Shown here piece after piece: positions 563-9,400 of a DNA stretch of 64,000 nt. Position numbers and translations under genes: made by a program. The notes beneath the pieces were generated by a model. That model did not search any database and was not told the origin of the DNA. It saw nothing but the letters and a program-made list of their open reading frames with translations. The first letter of the stretch is position 1; each line of letters opens with the position of its first letter. Source of the DNA: Scenedesmus sp. PABB004 (lineage: Eukaryota); assembly GCA_014905635.1 (NCBI GenBank), contig JABVCE010000012.1, positions 1,116,001 through 1,180,000 of the forward strand, in the 5' to 3' direction.

Positions 563-608
563 TGGTTCCACCCGGGATCGAACCGGGGACCTCCTCGGTG
601 TTAACGAG
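563..608 (-). tRNA. 3' portion of an interrupted tRNA-Val(AAC): anticodon arm, T-arm, acceptor strand
   Basis: Minus strand reads CTCG-TTAACAC-CGAGG-AGGTC-CCCGG-TTCGATC-CCGGG-TGGAACC-A, with TTTT downstream (plus 546-549 aaaa). No D-arm or 5' acceptor strand is adjacent. Confidence 0.9.
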
Positions 609-942
609 CGGCGGCGGGCTGGTCCATGGTTTGTTGCCTCGGTCAAGTGTTACCGACACGCGCACCCGCGAGCGCGGCCCCCACCCAACCACCACCTCAA
701 CGCGGCCGACGCAGCCAACGCCTCGCCGCCGTCGCCTCGCCTCCACCGCCGGCCTGCCCGCAGCCGCCGCCGCCGCTGAGCCGCCAACACCTCCGTCGCG
801 CGCAGAGCGCGCCCGGAGGTGCCCCCGGAGCCCAGCACCACACGCGCCCAAACAGCGTCGCGGCGGCCGCACCAAGCACACGCCCGCACGCAACACCAGC
901 TGGCGCCTCGCGCACTGCCGGGCATCACACACGTACATGCAC

Positions 943-2395
943 TCACGCGAGGCGCTGCAGCGTGGGCTGCGCCACGCACAGCGCGACGCCCCGCTCGCGC
1001 GCCCAGGCGCACAGCTGCTCCAGGCCGCCGCGAGCCAGGCGGTCCTGGTGCATGGCCAGGATGACGTTGCAGCCGCCGCTGGCGAGGGTCTGCAGCACCT
1101 TGAACAGGTGGTGGTCGTGCGGCAGCTGCTCGCCAGGCGGGCAGAACACGCTGCCCACCAAGCGCTCCAGGCGCGAGGGCCGCGCGTCGCCGCGGCCCGT
1201 GATGACGACGGTCGCGTCCACGATGGCCGCGTACTGGCGCAGGAAGCTCTCGCCGTCCCCGACCTGCGCCTCGGTCGACACGCGGACGAGCGCGCCGAAG
1301 ACGAGCGGGCCGGCGGGCAGGCGCAGCTCGTCGCGCGCCGCCCGCTGCGGCGGCAGCAGCGCCGCCAGGGGTGGGGCCTGCCCGCCGGCGGCGGCGGCCG
1401 CCGCAGCGTCGCGCAGTAAGGCATTGATGTCGCCCATCCGCCCGCGGCCGACGAGGGCGAGGCGGCTGCTGCCGGCCGCGAGCGCCGCGCCCTCGCTGGC
1501 CGCGGCGGCCTCCGCCGCCAGCAGCGCGGGCATGCCGATGTTGCTCGCGGTGATGAGGAATGGCAGCGACGTCAGCTGCACGGCGTTGGGGTTCGCCTCC
1601 GCGCGCGCCGCGCCGCGCTCGCGCTCCTCCAGCGCGATGGCAAGCCACGCGGCGCGCGCGTCGGCGGCCAGGCTCTCCGCGGCGGGCGCGCCGATGAGCA
1701 GCGCGACAAAGGCGCGGGCGAGGCCGGCGCGGCCGCCCTCCTCGATGCCGCTGAGCTCGCGCGCGCCAGCGGGTGCGCCGGCCTGGCGCAGCAGCGCGTT
1801 GACGACCGGCAGCGGCGCCAGCAGCACGAGCACGTCGAGGCTGTCCTCGCCGACGAGCGCGGCGAGGGCGCCCTCGCAGCGCGACGCGCGGCTGACCTCC
1901 GTCACAGCGACGAGGCCGCGCCCGCCCGCCGCCGGCGGCGGCGGTGGGGCCGGCGGCCGCCGCCGCCGAGCTGCTGCCGGCCGCGCTGCCGGCGCTGTCG
2001 CACTGGCGCACGGCGCGGCTGCCGCCGGCGGCGCTGATCGCGGCGAGGGGCGCCTTGCGCGCCTCGTCGCAGCTGGCCGAGGCCGACTGCCGCGCAATGT
2101 GCACGGGCGTGTCGGCCGGCACCATGGCGGACAGGTGGGCCTGCTGGTGGCCGGCCGCCCCGCCGCCGGTGCCCTTGCTCGAGCGCGCGAGGCGCGCGAC
2201 GCGGCGGTAGCGCACGGTGATGGCCATGACGGTGCGGCGCGTCAGCAGCACCTGGGGGTGTATGGCCTTGGTCCGCACAGCTAGCGCCGCCTTGCCCGAC
2301 AGGCGCGTGCTGGCCGCGCCGCTCGCGCCCAGCAGCTGGGCGGCGTATGCCGCGTCGTAGTCCAGGTTGGCCTGCGGCGTCTCGACGGGGTGCAT
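943..2395 (-). CDS. Serine recombinase (resolvase / IS607-TnpA-like) protein with two catalytic-type domains; one frameshift near 1920-1990
   Basis: C-terminal domain: GALVRVSTEAQVGDGESFLRQ (Ser codon 1276-1278) and VILAMHQDRLARGGLEQLCAWARERGVAL (DRLAR 1030-1044). N-terminal domain: RRVARLARSS, LVAVTEVSRASR and WLAIALEERER. ATG at 2395 is in a different frame from ORF 943-2097. Confidence 0.8.
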
Positions 2396-2949: not shown

Positions 2950-4505
2950 ATGGCGGCGCAGCCGGACCGCAAGCGCCCGTTCGAGGTGCGGCGGCCGTGG
3001 CGGCGCGGCCGCGGCGGCGGCGCGATCAGCAGCAGCAGCAGCAGCGCCGCGGCGACCGCCCGCGCCCGCGCGCGCGGCGCCGCAGGGCGACGACGGCGAC
3101 GCCATGGCCGGCGAGGACGGCGGCCCCGAAATTGCCACCGACACCGAGGGCAGCGACGACGACGAGGTGCGCAGCCGGCACGCGTCGGCCGCGGCGGCGC
3201 GGCGGCGCGGCGGCGCTGTCCGCGACCCACGCGCGCCCCATGCGCCGCCGGGCGCCGCCCCTGCTCGCGCCACAGGCCTACGACGTGCCCGGCAGCACCG
3301 CCGCCCTGCCGGACGGAGAGGTGCGCTCGCGGCGCGTGTGGGGGCCGCAGACTCCGCGCCGCCGACCTCGCGCGCGCCGCGCCACGCGCGCGCTGCCGGG
3401 CTCTGCCGGCCGACTCGCGCGCGCCGCCGCCGCCGCCGCCGCCGTGGTGCAGCTGTTCGACCTGGCCAGCCTGCCCGTGTTCGCGGCCGGGCTCCTGGCG
3501 GTGCAGGGCAGCGCGCCGCTGCAGCTGTCCAGGGTCACCGTGGCCCGCGCCGCGCCGGCGCGCCGCGAGGCGCGGGCTGTCGGGTGCAACGGCAACTGCC
3601 CCCTGCTGAGCTCCTGTATGGTGCCGGGCTGTGCCGGCTACGTGCCCGTGCACGGGCCCGGCTTGCTGGCGATGGCCGCAGCGCGGCGGGCGGCGCCGCG
3701 CGACAGCGTTGGCCGCGACCCCGTGTCGGCGCGCGCCGGCCGCGCCAGCGCCGTCGCGGGGCAGCAGCGCCGCGCGGCGGCGGCGGCCGCGACCGGCGAG
3801 CTGGAGCTGCCCTTGTGCGTGACGTTTGAGGCGTGGAGCGGCAAGTACCGCGCGACGCTCAACCTAACGCTCAGCGGCAAGCGCGCCGAGCCGGCTGGCT
3901 CCTCGGCGGCCGCTGCCGCGGGCGCCACCGTCGCCGAGGGTGCCGCCGCCAAGGGCGCCGCCGCCAACGACGCCCCCAAGACCCTCGCTGCCTACCTCGC
4001 CGGCGCCGCGGCCGCCGCTCGCGCGGCGGCCGGCGAGGCCGCCGCCGCCGCCGCCGCCCGGGGCGGCGCCGAGGCGCCTGGCACGCGCAGCGCGTGGGCG
4101 CTGGCCGTGCGCGTGCTGGAGCAGGCAGCCAAGCTGGCCGGGGGCAGCAAGCCGCCGACCGCGGCCAAGGCCGAGCTGCGCGCCGCGCGGCGCGCCGATG
4201 TGCGGGACGCAGCGGCGGACGCCGCGCTGGTCCGCGACGTGGCGCACTGCGTCAGGCTGCGCGACTCATCGCAGGACGACCGCGGCGCGTGGTGGTCCAG
4301 CGCAGCGGGCCTGCCGCCGTGGGCGGAGCTGCAGGGCCTCGCCGCGCGCGCCGCCGCGGGGCAGGCCTTCCTGGACATCATGCTCCCCGAGCTCAAGAGC
4401 GCCGACACGGTGCGCGGCGCGGGGGCGATGCTTGCGGCGCCGCCGGCGCCGCCGCGGCCGCTCGGTCGCGTGCCTGCGCTGACGCGCCGGCGCTCTGCCC
4501 GCAGG

Positions 4506-4551
<46 letters not shown>

Positions 4552-5163
4552 CGACGGCGCCAACGGCGCCGGCGGCGCCGGCGAGGGCATCACGCGCGTC
4601 ACGGGCGTGAACAAACACAACGGCGGCTGGCGCGGGCTCTGCTACGTCACGCTCAGCAAGGGCGAGAGCGCCCTCACGCACCACGTCCCCACCCTCGAGC
4701 AGCGCCAGCAGGCGGCGGCGGCCGCCGCCGCGGCCCCGGGGCGGCGCTGCCCCAGCAGCTCGCGGTGGCGGCGCTGGGCGCGGCGCTGGGCGCGGCGCGG
4801 CAGGCGGAGACGGCGGCGCAGGCGGCGGTGGCGGCGCGGGACCCGGCGCCGGACCCGGCGGACGTGCCGGCGGCGGCGGCGGCAGTGGCGGAGGCCGCGG
4901 CAGCCGACCTGCCCAGCGTGCCCGTGAAAGTCTACGGCCCCACGCGCCCCGCCAGCCGCGCGGGCCACGGCCGCGCAGTCGAGGACCTGCGCATCCTGGA
5001 GCGCGCGGCGCACCTCGCCGGCCTGCGCGAGGCGGCGGCGCCGCCCGGCGGCGCGCCGCCGCTGCCCGCGTATGCGGCGCTCGACGGGCGCGCGGCGCGC
5101 GAGGCCGCGGCCACCGCCCTGTGCGCCAAGTCACGCGAGCGGCTCGCCGAGCTGCCCGCCTGA
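2950..5163 (+). CDS. Spliced hypothetical protein with two internal AP2-like repeats (element cargo)
   Basis: Frame-preserving GT-AG introns 2986-3085, 3167-3275 and 4410-4504. Repeat 1: LPLCVTFEAWSGKYRATLNLTLSG...VRVLEQAAKLAG. Repeat 2: ITRVTGVNKHNGGWRGLCYVTLSKG...LRILERAAHLAG. Apparent frameshift at a C/G run near 4735-4742. Confidence 0.55.
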
Positions 5164-5563
5164 GAGCTCCTGGCCGGGCGGCCCCGCCGGAGGGGCCGCG
5201 GGCGGCCGCGGGCCGGCGGCTGGCTGCGCGGGCGCGCGTGTGCGGGGAGAGTTGGCGGCGGGGCCGGCCCTGTCCAGCCGCGCGCGCGGGGCGAGAACGC
5301 CGTGCGAGTGCATGCGTGTCGCGCCGGGCGTCGTAAAGCTGGCCGCGGCGCAGTCCCCTGGCCGGCGCGTGCCTGGCCGGCGCGTGCCCGCAACTGCTCC
5401 CCCCTCCCCCGCGCCCCGCGACGGCAGCGCACGAGCACGTCGAGGTTGTCCTCTACGCAGCTCGGCGCATTTTGAGATATGACATATATATATGAGTAGT
5501 CTATCGGAGGTGTCATTCAGACTTGATTACTCTGAAACGCAAAAAGCCCATTCGCGGATACAG

Positions 5564-5637
5564 GGTTCCATGGCGTAGTTGGTTATCGCGCTCGCCCGAC
5601 ACGCGAGAGGTCCCCGGTTCGATCCCGGGTGGAACCA
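5564..5637 (+). tRNA. Complete tRNA-Val with GAC anticodon and C33, carried inside the element
   Basis: GGTTCCA/TGGAACC acceptor stem, GCG/CGC D-stem, CTCGC-CCGACAC-GCGAG anticodon arm (GAC at 5598-5600), GGTTCGATCC B-box, discriminator A. Confidence 0.9.
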
Positions 5638-5639
5638 TG

Positions 5640-5647
5640 TTTTTTTT
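5640..5647 (+). terminator. RNA polymerase III oligo-T terminator of the carried tRNA
   Basis: Eight T residues beginning 3 nt after the discriminator base. Confidence 0.85.
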
Positions 5648-5895
5648 ATGAACGGTTGTTCTCGGGGCGCGCCATCGGGCGTCCATTTTGCACCGCACAC
5701 GCCCTGTTGGCCCGTCCCTCGGTGTGTGTGCGCGGAGACAACACTGAGTGTGTGCGGGCGACGCTTTTGGGCGTAGGCGTGGCCACGGGCGGCAGCTGCG
5801 CGCGAATGACTGGCAAACTTGAAGGGGTCCGTGTGTGCGCCGTAGGCGCCTGTTCACCCCAGGTAACGCCCTTCTTCCGCGATTTCTCGGTGGAC

Positions 5896-5929
5896 AACGA
5901 GGTGTCATAACCAACTAGACCATGGAACC
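5896..5929 (-). tRNA. 5' portion of the interrupted tRNA-Val(AAC): acceptor strand, D-arm, start of anticodon arm
   Basis: Minus strand reads GGTTCCA-TG-GTCTAGTTGGTTATGAC-A-CCTCG-TT. GGTTCCA pairs with TGGAACC and CCTCG pairs with CGAGG of the 563-608 portion. The upstream flank is AT-rich. Confidence 0.9.
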
Positions 5930-6175
5930 GCACGATTTGCGCGGCGGACGATCCGGTGTCGATGCCTACTGCGACAATGTTGATGTATTTAAAAACCACA
6001 ACTGAAAATCGCGGCGCGGCATGGGCAGAACGAAATGCCCAAAAAAGAAATCAAAAATAATCAAATAACGGCGCATGATCGCTGGCCTGGCCTGGCCTGG
6101 CCGCCTCGCACTTGGAGGACACAGACACGTGCGGTGGCGGGGAGGGAGTTGGTCAGGCCCGCCAGGCGTTCCGAT

Positions 6176-6310
6176 GTGGGACGCTCAACCGCCCGGAGCG
6201 TACCGGGCCCCGCCGTGTAACCAGCAACAACAACCTCGCGTGGGACGCTCAACCGCCCGGAGCGTACCGGGCCCCGCCGTGTAACCAACAACAACAACAA
6301 CAGCCTCGCG
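6176..6310 (+). repeat. Two 48-nt direct repeats (period 64), each ending TGTAACCA and followed by (CAA)n and CCTCGCG
   Basis: 6176-6223 is identical to 6240-6287. Confidence 0.9.
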
Positions 6311-6410: not shown

Positions 6411-9400
6411 GTGGACGCGCCGCCGGCAGTGGGGGCGGACACCGTCAGCACCGCCGCGTGCGCGCCCGCCCGGGCCCGCGCGATGCGGGAGACCGCCCCA
6501 CGGCCGCAGGCCGGGTCGGGTCGCGCACCGGAGCCGGCGCCGGCCGGCGGCGTCGCTGGTGGCGAGCGGGCTGCGACTGCGGTTGGCGATGTAGCGTGCC
6601 CTCCCGTCAGCGGGCGCGTCGGGGCTGCCCGGCCCCGCGTGGAGGGGCCCGCCACGGCGGGCGGGGAGCAGCCCCGCCTGCTCGTGCCCGGCCCGGTGGC
6701 GGCGGGCAGCACGGCCGCGGCCGTGCGGGGCGGCGCGGTGCGCCCCGACCGCCGCGGCCGCGCCAAGCGGCCCCGCCTGGCGGGGCCGCCGCGCGGCGTG
6801 AAGCGCCGCGCCGCTGAGGAGCTGGCGGCGCCGCAGAGCCGCTGGCAGCGCAGCTGCTACGCCGGCGAGGGCTGCGGCAGCACCTGCGCCGCGGCCACCG
6901 ATGCGGCCTCCCGCGCCGGCGGCGGTGCCGTGGAGCGCCTGGCTGCGCGGCTGCGCAAGGTGCGCGTCGGCGACGGCGCGGCGCGGCCGCGGCGCCGCGG
7001 GCCGCCGCGCGGCGGCGCCGTCCCCGCCCCCCGCCCCCAAATGCCCAGCCGCGCTAGGCGGGCGCGACGCGCCGCGCCGGGCTGCGCTGCGCTCCGCGTG
7101 GTGAGCCACAACGTCGACGGCCTCGGGGCGCGGCTCAGCCCCCAGGCCGAACACGGGCTCCCCGTCGCGGAGTGGGGCCGGCCGGAGGCTGCGGCGCAGG
7201 TGTGGGTGGAGTTGGGCGCTGACGTTGTGCTGGTGCAGGAGGTCAGCATGCCGCGCGCGCAGCTCGACGGCGTGCTGAGGCGCATCAACGCGGCCGCCGA
7301 GGCGCACCACGCCGCAGTGCGTGGCGGCGCGCACGGCGGCTTCGACGCTGAGTTCTGCCTGGACGACGGCTCGGCAGGCGTCGCCATCCTTTGGCGGTGC
7401 AGGCTGGTCGAGCAGGAGGCGCTCAGTGTGACGCGGGCTGGCTGCGGTTGTGGCAGCGGCGGGTGCCGCAGCGACGACAGCCACTGCACAACGCCGCCCG
7501 CCAGGGGCAGGCTGCTCACAGCGCGCGTGCGCTGGGGCGGCCACACGCTGCGCCTGGCTAGCGTGTACTGCCCCAACGATGCTGCGGCGAGGGTGGCGCT
7601 GCTGGGCCCCGACGGCGCGGTCGGCCGCGCCTGGGCGGCCGCGCCCGCGGGCGGCGCCGTCTTTGCCGGTGATTGGAACTACGTGGAGGACCCGCCCGCG
7701 GACCGCCGGCGGCAGCGCGGCGGCGCGCCGGGTGCCGGCGAGTGCCCGGACGACGCGCGCTGCGCCGCCGCGTGGCGGGACGGGGCGCCGGGCGCGGTCG
7801 ACGCCTTCCGCTGGCGTCACCCCCGCACGCACGGCTTCACGTTTTTCCACCGAGGCAACGGCCACCTCGCACGGCTGGACCGGGCCTACGTTGCAGAGCC
7901 CCTCGCCCGGCACGTGCTGGCCTGCACGAGCCAGCCGGCGGCGGTGTCGGACCACGACCCGCTGGTGCTGGAGCTGCTACCGCGCGTGACGCCCTGCCCG
8001 CGCGGCCGCGGGCTGCCGCGCGCGCGGCTCCAGTTTTGGAGCTCGGCGGCGCTCCGCGGCGCGCTCCGGGAATGGCTGGCGGGCCAGGTGGACGGCGCGC
8101 CCGCGGACCCCAGGGCCCTGTTGCTCTGGTACCCCGGGTTCAAGCGCCGGCTCCTGGACAAGGAGCGCGAGCTCGCGCAGCTCTGGCGCAGGGTGCAGCG
8201 GCAGGAGCAGCAGCGTGCTGGCGGGCGCGAGCTACGGCGGCTCGCGGAGCGCGCCGCGGTGCGCGCGGCCGAGGCTGACGGGCAGCAGGAGCGCGAGGAG
8301 GCGCTAGCCGCCCTCACGGCGGCCCGCGACGCCCTGCGCCGACACGCGGCGGCTACGCTGCGGGCGAGCGCGCGCGTCCAGCGGCTGCGCTGGCTGCACG
8401 GCGGCGAGCGCCCATGCACGGGCATCACGGAGCAGCTGCGCGGGCTGGAGCGCGGCGCGGCGGCGGGCCGCGTTGTGGCCCTCCGCAGCGCCGCGGGCGA
8501 CCTGGTCACGCGGCGCGCCGGCCCGGCCGAGGTGGCCATTGCGCACTGGGCCGCGGTCAGCGCGCAGCCGCGCGTTGATGCTGCGGCCCGGGCGCGGGTG
8601 CTGGGCGCGGTGCGCCGCTTCCCAAGCGCGCCGGCGGCGGCCGACGGCAGGGGCGAGGTCACAGAGCACGAGGTCCAGCGCGCGCTGGCCGCGGCGCGGC
8701 CAGGCTCGGCCCCCGGGCCGGACGGCCTGCCCACCTTGCTCTGGCGGCGCTGCGGGCGGGTGCTGGCCCCGCTGCTCGCCCGCGTGTTCTCGGCGGTGGG
8801 GGAGCTCGGCGCGGTGCCGGACGGCTTCTTGGACGGTGCCGTCGTCGGCAATGACAAGGGCGGCGACCGCACCGCGCCGGCCAACTACCGGCCCATCACG
8901 TTGCTCAACGCTGACTACCGCCTGCTGGCGCGCGTGCTGGCCGACAGGCTGCAGTTTGTGCTGGGCGATGCCATCTCGCCCACGCAAACAGCCTTCATCA
9001 AGGGGCGGCGCATCGGCGAGAACATCCTGGCGGTCCAGCTCCTGCTGCACGCGCTGCCCGCGTCTAGCCGGGCGGCGGCGGCGCTGCTGGACTTCCAAAA
9101 GGCCTACGATACAGTGGATCGCGGCTTCCTCTTTGCCGTGATGCGCGAGATGGGGGTCCCGCCCGGCTTCCTGCGCTGGGTCCGGCTGCTCTTGTCGGAC
9201 ACGCGCGCGGTCGCCGTGGTCAACGGGTTCACGTCGCAGCCCCGCGCGTTCTGCGCGGGCATCCGCCAGGGCTGCCCCCTCTCCCCCCTGTTGTACCTCT
9301 TTGTGGGCGAGGCGCTCCTCCGCTTCCTGCGTGCGCACGACTTTGGCATCGCGCTGCCAGGGTCCTCTGCGCTGCTGCCGGGCCCCCGCCTGGTGGCCAC

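Follow-up and report, generated by a model that had tools for sequence, protein, structure and literature searches.

A green-alga nuclear gene with a probable, diverged serine-recombinase core behind a family-specific N-terminal domain

A recombinase-like gene lies near the left end, on the minus strand, of a 64,000-nucleotide (nt) stretch of Scenedesmus sp. PABB004 (assembly GCA_014905635.1, contig JABVCE010000012.1, positions 1,116,001 to 1,180,000), hereafter the window. Its coding region extends from 2395 to 946, followed by a stop codon at 945–943, and is read in two frames, with an ATG start at 2395 opening frame A and the open reading frame (ORF) at 943–2097 constituting frame B. The guanine-plus-cytosine (GC) content is about 73–83% throughout the window and ~78% around the gene, and all six reading frames are open in the window. 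The start codon at 2395 and the N-terminal sequence line up with those of two related proteins, P0002 and P0004; tblastn placed P0002 residues 1–95 at 2386–2096 and residues 128–437 at 1914–970, and codon-position GC periodicity gave the same two frames. An exhaustive protein search returned P0001 (429 amino acids (aa)), which matches the final 135 aa of the ORF with 100% identity and is listed as 'hypothetical protein HT031_004117 [Scenedesmus sp. PABB004]'. This identity and name assign the gene to the nuclear genome of a green alga with GC-rich DNA and identify P0001 as its public model. The predicted protein is lineage-restricted and about 450 aa long, and no second copy of the gene was found within the 64-kb window. 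The features of the gene are as follows, in the direction of reading:

946–2395, minus strand: whole coding region (frame A, 2395 to ~1945; frame B, ~1913 to 946).
1783–2209, minus strand: family-specific alpha/beta domain, interrupted by the frame change, with ARSS at 2188–2177 and SRASR at 1893–1879 (family alignment and AlphaFold 2 (AF2) model).
1841–2003, minus strand: 163-nt GT..AG 'intron' of P0001, which joins ...SRAVR to HLDVLV....
1914–1944, minus strand: tract of 31 nt made up of G and C only, with no A or T, holding the +1 frame switch.
1297–1782, minus strand: middle region, mostly helical and Ala-rich, holding WLAIALEERERGAAR and a conserved GSSxxAL (family identity 30–35%).
946–1296, minus strand: serine-recombinase-like catalytic core, beta1 to beta4, helix E absent (hhalign, hmmsearch, BLASTP, NCBIfam, PDB and protein atlas).
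1261–1281, minus strand: RVSTEAQ motif (aligned to RVSTEEQ of a phage recombinase and to a resolvase hidden Markov model (HMM)).
1024–1050, minus strand: HQDRLARGG motif (Asp-Arg-x-x-Arg; aligned to HRDRLARFG of IS1535 TnpA, 6dgb).
941–946, minus strand: GTGAGT overlapping the stop codon 945–943 (sequence reading).

The last ~117 aa of the predicted protein very probably descend from a serine-recombinase catalytic core, diverged and nearest to IS607 TnpA, in keeping with the C-terminal domain that the original prediction had read from the sequence. Searching phages by tblastn gave three records, all with E of 3 or more, and the Microcystis phage recombinase was used solely to supply a true recombinase sequence (PF00239 at 1e-27). 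BLASTP aligned the C-terminal domain to this protein with 37/117 identical residues (E 4e-6), in an alignment that sets RVSTEAQ opposite RVSTEEQ and DRLAR opposite DRLFR. A set of 120 of 915 PF00239 matches was gathered with the phage recombinase, and an HMM built from the first 160 aa of these 120 proteins detected the window domain by hmmsearch at E 2e-7 (HMM positions 6–107). Compared with the same set by hhalign, a four-sequence alignment of the C-terminal domain scored 41.8 over 95 columns (probability 88.9, E 2.4e-6); column shuffles scored 12.6 ± 2.6 with a maximum of 19.8, and none of the 100 reached the observed value. In global mode the score was 32.3 against 3.8 ± 2.9 for shuffled columns (0/40 reached it). 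The IS607 transposase family NF033518 of NCBIfam matched the window protein at E 1.3e-3 (18.3 bits), the relative P0003 at 3.3e-3 (17 bits) and P0002 at 0.1 (12.1 bits), and among PDB sequences IS1535 TnpA (6dgb) was matched at E 0.029. In a protein atlas, the three best clusters for the domain consisted of 89–95% PF00239 members (scores 0.86–0.87). Foldseek of the C-terminal model matched 6dgc_B with a probability of 0.96 and placed the resolvase-family structure 3guv_A first among fold matches, with nothing at E ≤ 0.001.

The predicted catalytic set is kept, comprising the Arg-x-Ser of RVSTxxQ and the Asp-Arg-x-x-Arg of HQDRLARGG. R, V, S, T and Q of RVSTEAQ are invariant across the family, with the codon of the candidate nucleophile serine at 1275–1273, and H, Q, D and R of HQDRLARGG are invariant in 5/5 family alignment rows, followed by L or Y. 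Helix E, which in serine recombinases builds the dimer and tetramer, is absent from the predicted protein, because the resolvase alignment covers template columns 17–117 of 181 and the protein ends ~10 residues past beta4, where three relatives terminate at the same ...R[LI]A. No DNA-binding family, helix-turn-helix (HTH) or large-integrase domain was detected anywhere in the protein by Pfam scan (no HTH at E ≤ 10), in agreement with the original prediction.

With the C-terminal 135 aa as query, the exhaustive search found five proteins at E ≤ 0.001 among 1.84 billion cluster representatives. One of these, P0005, is a 1062-aa repeat protein whose match is confined to residues 65–104; it was judged unrelated and left out of the alignments, so that the family comprises four proteins in this collection: P0001, P0002 (448 aa, 50% identical), P0004 (428 aa, 41% identical) and P0003, a 98-aa fragment. 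The full-length sequences (n = 3) align end to end, with pairwise identities of 31–39% in the N-terminal domain, 30–35% in the middle region and 42–46% in the C-terminal domain. A further profile search (A1), in which 8000 candidates were scored, recovered P0001 and P0004 only and missed P0002 and P0003, and is uninformative on family size. The C-terminal domain alone as query gave no hit at E ≤ 10 among 108 candidates scored, and none of 19 viral, 151 metagenome and 105 genome pattern matches in DNA scans was confirmed as a related locus. The middle region did not resemble resolvases in hhalign (probability 0.2), and a DUF6599 match (E 0.03) falling in this Ala-rich stretch was disregarded.

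The original prediction had further proposed a tandem architecture, in which motifs in the N-terminal part represent a second, diverged recombinase domain. Reading of the sequence and its ORFs located each of these motifs: RRVARLARSS at 2206–2177 in frame A, LVAVTEVSRASR at 1914–1879 in frame B, and WLAIALEERERGAAR in frame B within the middle region. They are also conserved. Among the relatives the N-terminal domain has 24 invariant columns, and the three full-length members share R57, V58, A62, R63, S64, S65, G67, G69, G71, A72 and Q76 as well as R133, S135, R136 and G139 (P0004 numbering). An AF2 model of the P0002 stretch, made with four alignment rows, predicted four successive strand-helix units followed by long helices, with a predicted local distance difference test score (pLDDT) of 61.2 and a predicted template modelling score of 0.59. 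The N-terminal part, as modelled, is thus a conserved three-layer alpha/beta domain. What stands of the original prediction is the C-terminal core and the presence of the N-terminal motifs.

The claimed recombinase kinship of the N-terminal part was not supported. The domain scored 14.6 against the resolvase profile and 13.5 against the C-terminal domain in hhalign (probability 0.4 in both cases), values that were reached by 13/100 and 15/100 shuffles, respectively, and global mode gave no signal. The protein atlas returned no usable match for this domain, Pfam none, and PDB sequences a transketolase only (E 2.9). Foldseek of the N-terminal model gave nothing at E ≤ 0.001; 48 of the 50 listed fold rows were not recombinases, with racemase and binding-protein folds on top, so that generic alpha/beta folds are at least as good a match to the model as recombinases are. 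The first ~300 aa are predicted to comprise an alpha/beta domain peculiar to this family and, after it, a helical region, with no demonstrable recombinase kinship.

These results bear on the proposal that the N-terminal alpha/beta domain is a diverged second catalytic domain with a helix-E-like helix, pairing within the chain with the C-terminal core, an arrangement that we consider unlikely. The spacing of two motifs that are invariant in the three full-length members speaks for it, ARSS offering an Arg-x-Ser and [S/T]RxSR an Arg-x-x-Arg; these motifs follow the predicted beta1 and beta3 of a b-a-b-a-b-a-b-a domain with long helices after it, and the sole segments aligned locally by hhalign, THQ..L and GGLAAL, lie more or less in line with the register that such a domain would require. 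However, in a tentative register the Asp of D-R-x-x-R is replaced by Ser or Thr, and the profile, atlas, Pfam, PDB and fold comparisons given above all weigh against such a kinship. A complex prediction of the N-terminal with the C-terminal part, in which the alignment was not used, gave no verdict (median score 0.01). It is similarly unlikely that the protein is a natural single-chain recombinase, kept by a few green algae in their nuclear genomes, in which a highly diverged N-terminal catalytic-like domain bearing its own helix-E-like helix pairs in cis with the C-terminal core that lacks helix E, giving a fused asymmetric pseudo-dimer.

Two other resemblances of the N-terminal motifs were rejected. 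Residues 63–85 of P0004 (window equivalent 2188–2120) carry the invariant RSSxGxGxGAxxxQ...L.A..P, and in P0004 only this stretch resembles the transketolase THDSIGxGEDGPTHQP; the matches (E 0.25 and 2.9) are not significant, and transketolase kinship was set aside. A MukB P-loop match (E 0.063) was not significant either, and the family sequences have no Walker lysine.

The +1 frame change reported in the original prediction was confirmed, and codon-position GC places the switch at 1914–1944: third codon positions have a GC fraction of 1.0 in frame A between 2090 and ~1945, and of 0.93–1.0 in frame B from ~1913. A GT..AG intron at the switch is impossible because 1944–1914 holds no A or T. 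The public model nevertheless carries an intron, located at 2003–1841 by reading the P0001 junction against the window sequence, and this intron drops LVAVTEVSRASRCEGALAALVGEDS. The dropped segment shows coding-like periodicity and aligns with LLVVWDVTRASRRDGGLAALAAAGF of P0004 and with its equivalent in P0002, and tblastn alignments start from 1914 for P0002 and from 1938 for P0004. From these alignments, the intron of P0001 probably serves in the annotation to bridge the frame change. The simplest reading is that the break would stem from a 1-nt insertion or deletion within the G/C tract, whether through faulty assembly or through a mutation of very recent date, and not from an intron. An annotated intron in a public gene model here conceals a frame break. 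Splicing at the GTGAGT that overlaps the stop codon, which the original prediction had raised, found no support: the shared ...R[LI]A terminus of the three relatives coincides with the stop codon, and GTGAGT is without support as a splice donor because codon periodicity vanishes downstream of it.

The frame break also raises the possibility that the gene is a decaying pseudogene, an inactive relic of an acquired recombinase in which the frame change is real and hidden by the public intron. A +1 shift inside the coding region that no possible intron could remove, together with the absence of helix E and of a DNA-binding domain, agrees with this view. Yet strong codon periodicity persists in both frames right up to the break, the invariant family residues are all intact, and the single lesion falls in a 31-nt tract of G and C only, where an assembly error is plausible. 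We regard decay as improbable.

The overall explanation that we favour, and hold to be rather likely, is of a green-alga gene in which a diverged C-terminal core of IS607/resolvase type stands behind a family-specific N-terminal domain. Such a gene would descend from a horizontally acquired IS607-like recombinase and may now persist as a low-copy host gene or as a relic. If the protein is active, the serine of RVST would attack DNA to form a phosphoserine link, and the N-terminal part might supply oligomerisation or DNA binding, replacing helix E and the HTH.

Several points weigh against this explanation. No family member reaches the curated Pfam or NCBIfam cut-offs: at the PF00239 gathering threshold (23.3 bits) there was no match for the window protein, P0001, P0002 or P0004, and P0003 scored 13.7 bits (E 0.066), whilst the NF033518 scores of the window protein, P0003 and P0002 all fall below the cut-off of 110 bits. 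AF2 of full-length P0004 was poor (pLDDT 39.4) and of no use for assessing the N-terminal domain, and the C-terminal fold consequently rests on a weak model. The profiles were built from 3–4 sequences, with an effective number of sequences (Neff) of about 1.9, giving the profile tests on the N-terminal domain little power, so that a very diverged recombinase domain there could escape them; and predicted beta1 and beta3 end in the invariant residues of the N-terminal part, at positions where recombinases have active-site residues.

The surroundings of the gene include a tRNA gene and a repeat derived from it:

5564–5637, plus strand: tRNA-Val gene (no other tRNA was called in the 64 kb).
563–593, minus strand, and 5607–5637, plus strand: exact 31-nt inverted repeat corresponding to the 3' part of the tRNA-Val (exact match).

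The inverted copies bracket ~5 kb containing the recombinase-like gene and a divergent neighbour, and the two could be taken to form a mobile or invertible 5-kb unit, with the recombinase acting on the tRNA-Val copies. The repeat has only two matches in the 64 kb (0 expected by chance), and its identity breaks off precisely at the 3' terminus of the tRNA. At ~550–650 on the minus strand lies a broken tRNA-like gene that includes the left copy, and in this gene the anticodon arm with the loop TTAACAC is kept and the 5' third is not tRNA-like; neither ARAGORN nor Rfam called it. Elements integrating at tRNA genes, however, leave direct and not inverted repeats, and neighbouring tRNA genes and tRNA pseudogenes are common in eukaryote genomes. 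The lack of a second gene copy in the window, and the failure to find the relatives' context in the viral, metagenome and genome scans, likewise argue against a mobile unit, which we consider very improbable.

The tRNA-Val has the anticodon GAC in the anticodon loop CCGACAC (C at position 33), which we take to be unusual for a eukaryotic nuclear tRNA-Val. It lies in an island of lower GC (58–64%) at 5250–6250, the window elsewhere having 73–83%, and a near-exact 59-nt tandem duplication (6176–6234 and 6240–6298, 98% identity) occurs in the same island. The divergent neighbour is a multi-exon gene upstream at ~3000–5163 on the plus strand, with codon periodicity and long Ala/Gln/Arg runs and with no Pfam or PDB sequence match. 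Further along the plus strand, an open frame at 6600–8250 shows strong codon periodicity and matches the Endonuclease/Exonuclease/phosphatase family (PF03372, E 4.8e-11). Downstream, a gene running convergently towards the recombinase-like gene has its 3' end at 1–267 on the plus strand; this end has a weak AAA_33 P-loop-kinase match (E 0.011), and its motif HFMPASLLDSQ is presumably gluconokinase-like.

Serine-type recombinases are chiefly prokaryotic and viral, and among the known systems IS607-family TnpA (IS1535 TnpA, 6dgb; ISC1926 TnpA, 6dgc) is the best family match of the alga protein. The two share the H-x-D-R-L-A-R-x-G stretch and a catalytic domain at the C-terminal end, as described for TnpA in the available portions of PMC6188088 and PMC4058570. 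In contrast to TnpA, the alga protein scores far below the 110-bit cut-off, has no detected MerR-type HTH and lacks the C-terminal helix; ~300 aa of unrelated sequence precede its core, and it is encoded by a eukaryotic nuclear gene. For a neighbouring tnpB, a scan of seven flanking ORFs gave no Pfam match, with 940 nt of the window lying downstream of the gene and with no dedicated TnpB search. The PF00239 small serine recombinases resemble the alga protein in their RVSTxxQ and DRLxR motifs, in collinear similarity from beta1 to beta4 and, on a weak C-terminal model, in the top fold match 3guv_A, whereas the alga protein falls below the gathering threshold, ends before helix E, has no C-terminal HTH and carries its core at the C-terminus. 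Large serine integrases (of TP901-1, Bxb1 and phiC31 type) contributed catalytic domains to the fold matches of both the N- and C-terminal parts; unlike them, the alga protein has no recombinase domain, zinc-ribbon or coiled-coil by Pfam, and its domain order is reversed.

IS607-like sequences, some possibly domesticated, are described from Amoebozoa, Ascomycetes, Basidiomycetes and Stramenopiles in the available text of PMC3673617, and TnpA_IS607-like recombinases from some Fanzor2 elements of Acanthamoeba and giant viruses in that of PMC3627910. The sequences of PMC3673617, so far as that text describes them, are like the alga family in being derivatives of a prokaryotic-type recombinase within nuclear genomes whose conservation suggests retention. 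They differ in being recognisable IS607 copies, and green algae are not among the groups listed in the same portion of that source; compared with the sequences presented there, the alga family has diverged much further, and its architecture is new. No report of tandem serine-recombinase catalytic domains or of such nuclear genes in Chlorophyta was found in the limited literature searched.

Overall, what appears new at this locus is a conserved, intact-looking catalytic core in a green-alga nuclear gene, with neither helix E nor an HTH and set behind a new alpha/beta domain. Were the N-terminal part a second catalytic domain after all, we would know of no earlier example of a natural serine-recombinase pseudo-dimer fused into one chain; our limited literature search found none. 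As a derivative of a diverged IS607/resolvase-type core, the gene would extend the retention of recombinase-derived genes to one more eukaryotic lineage, and the family could show a serine-recombinase core working without its usual oligomerisation helix.
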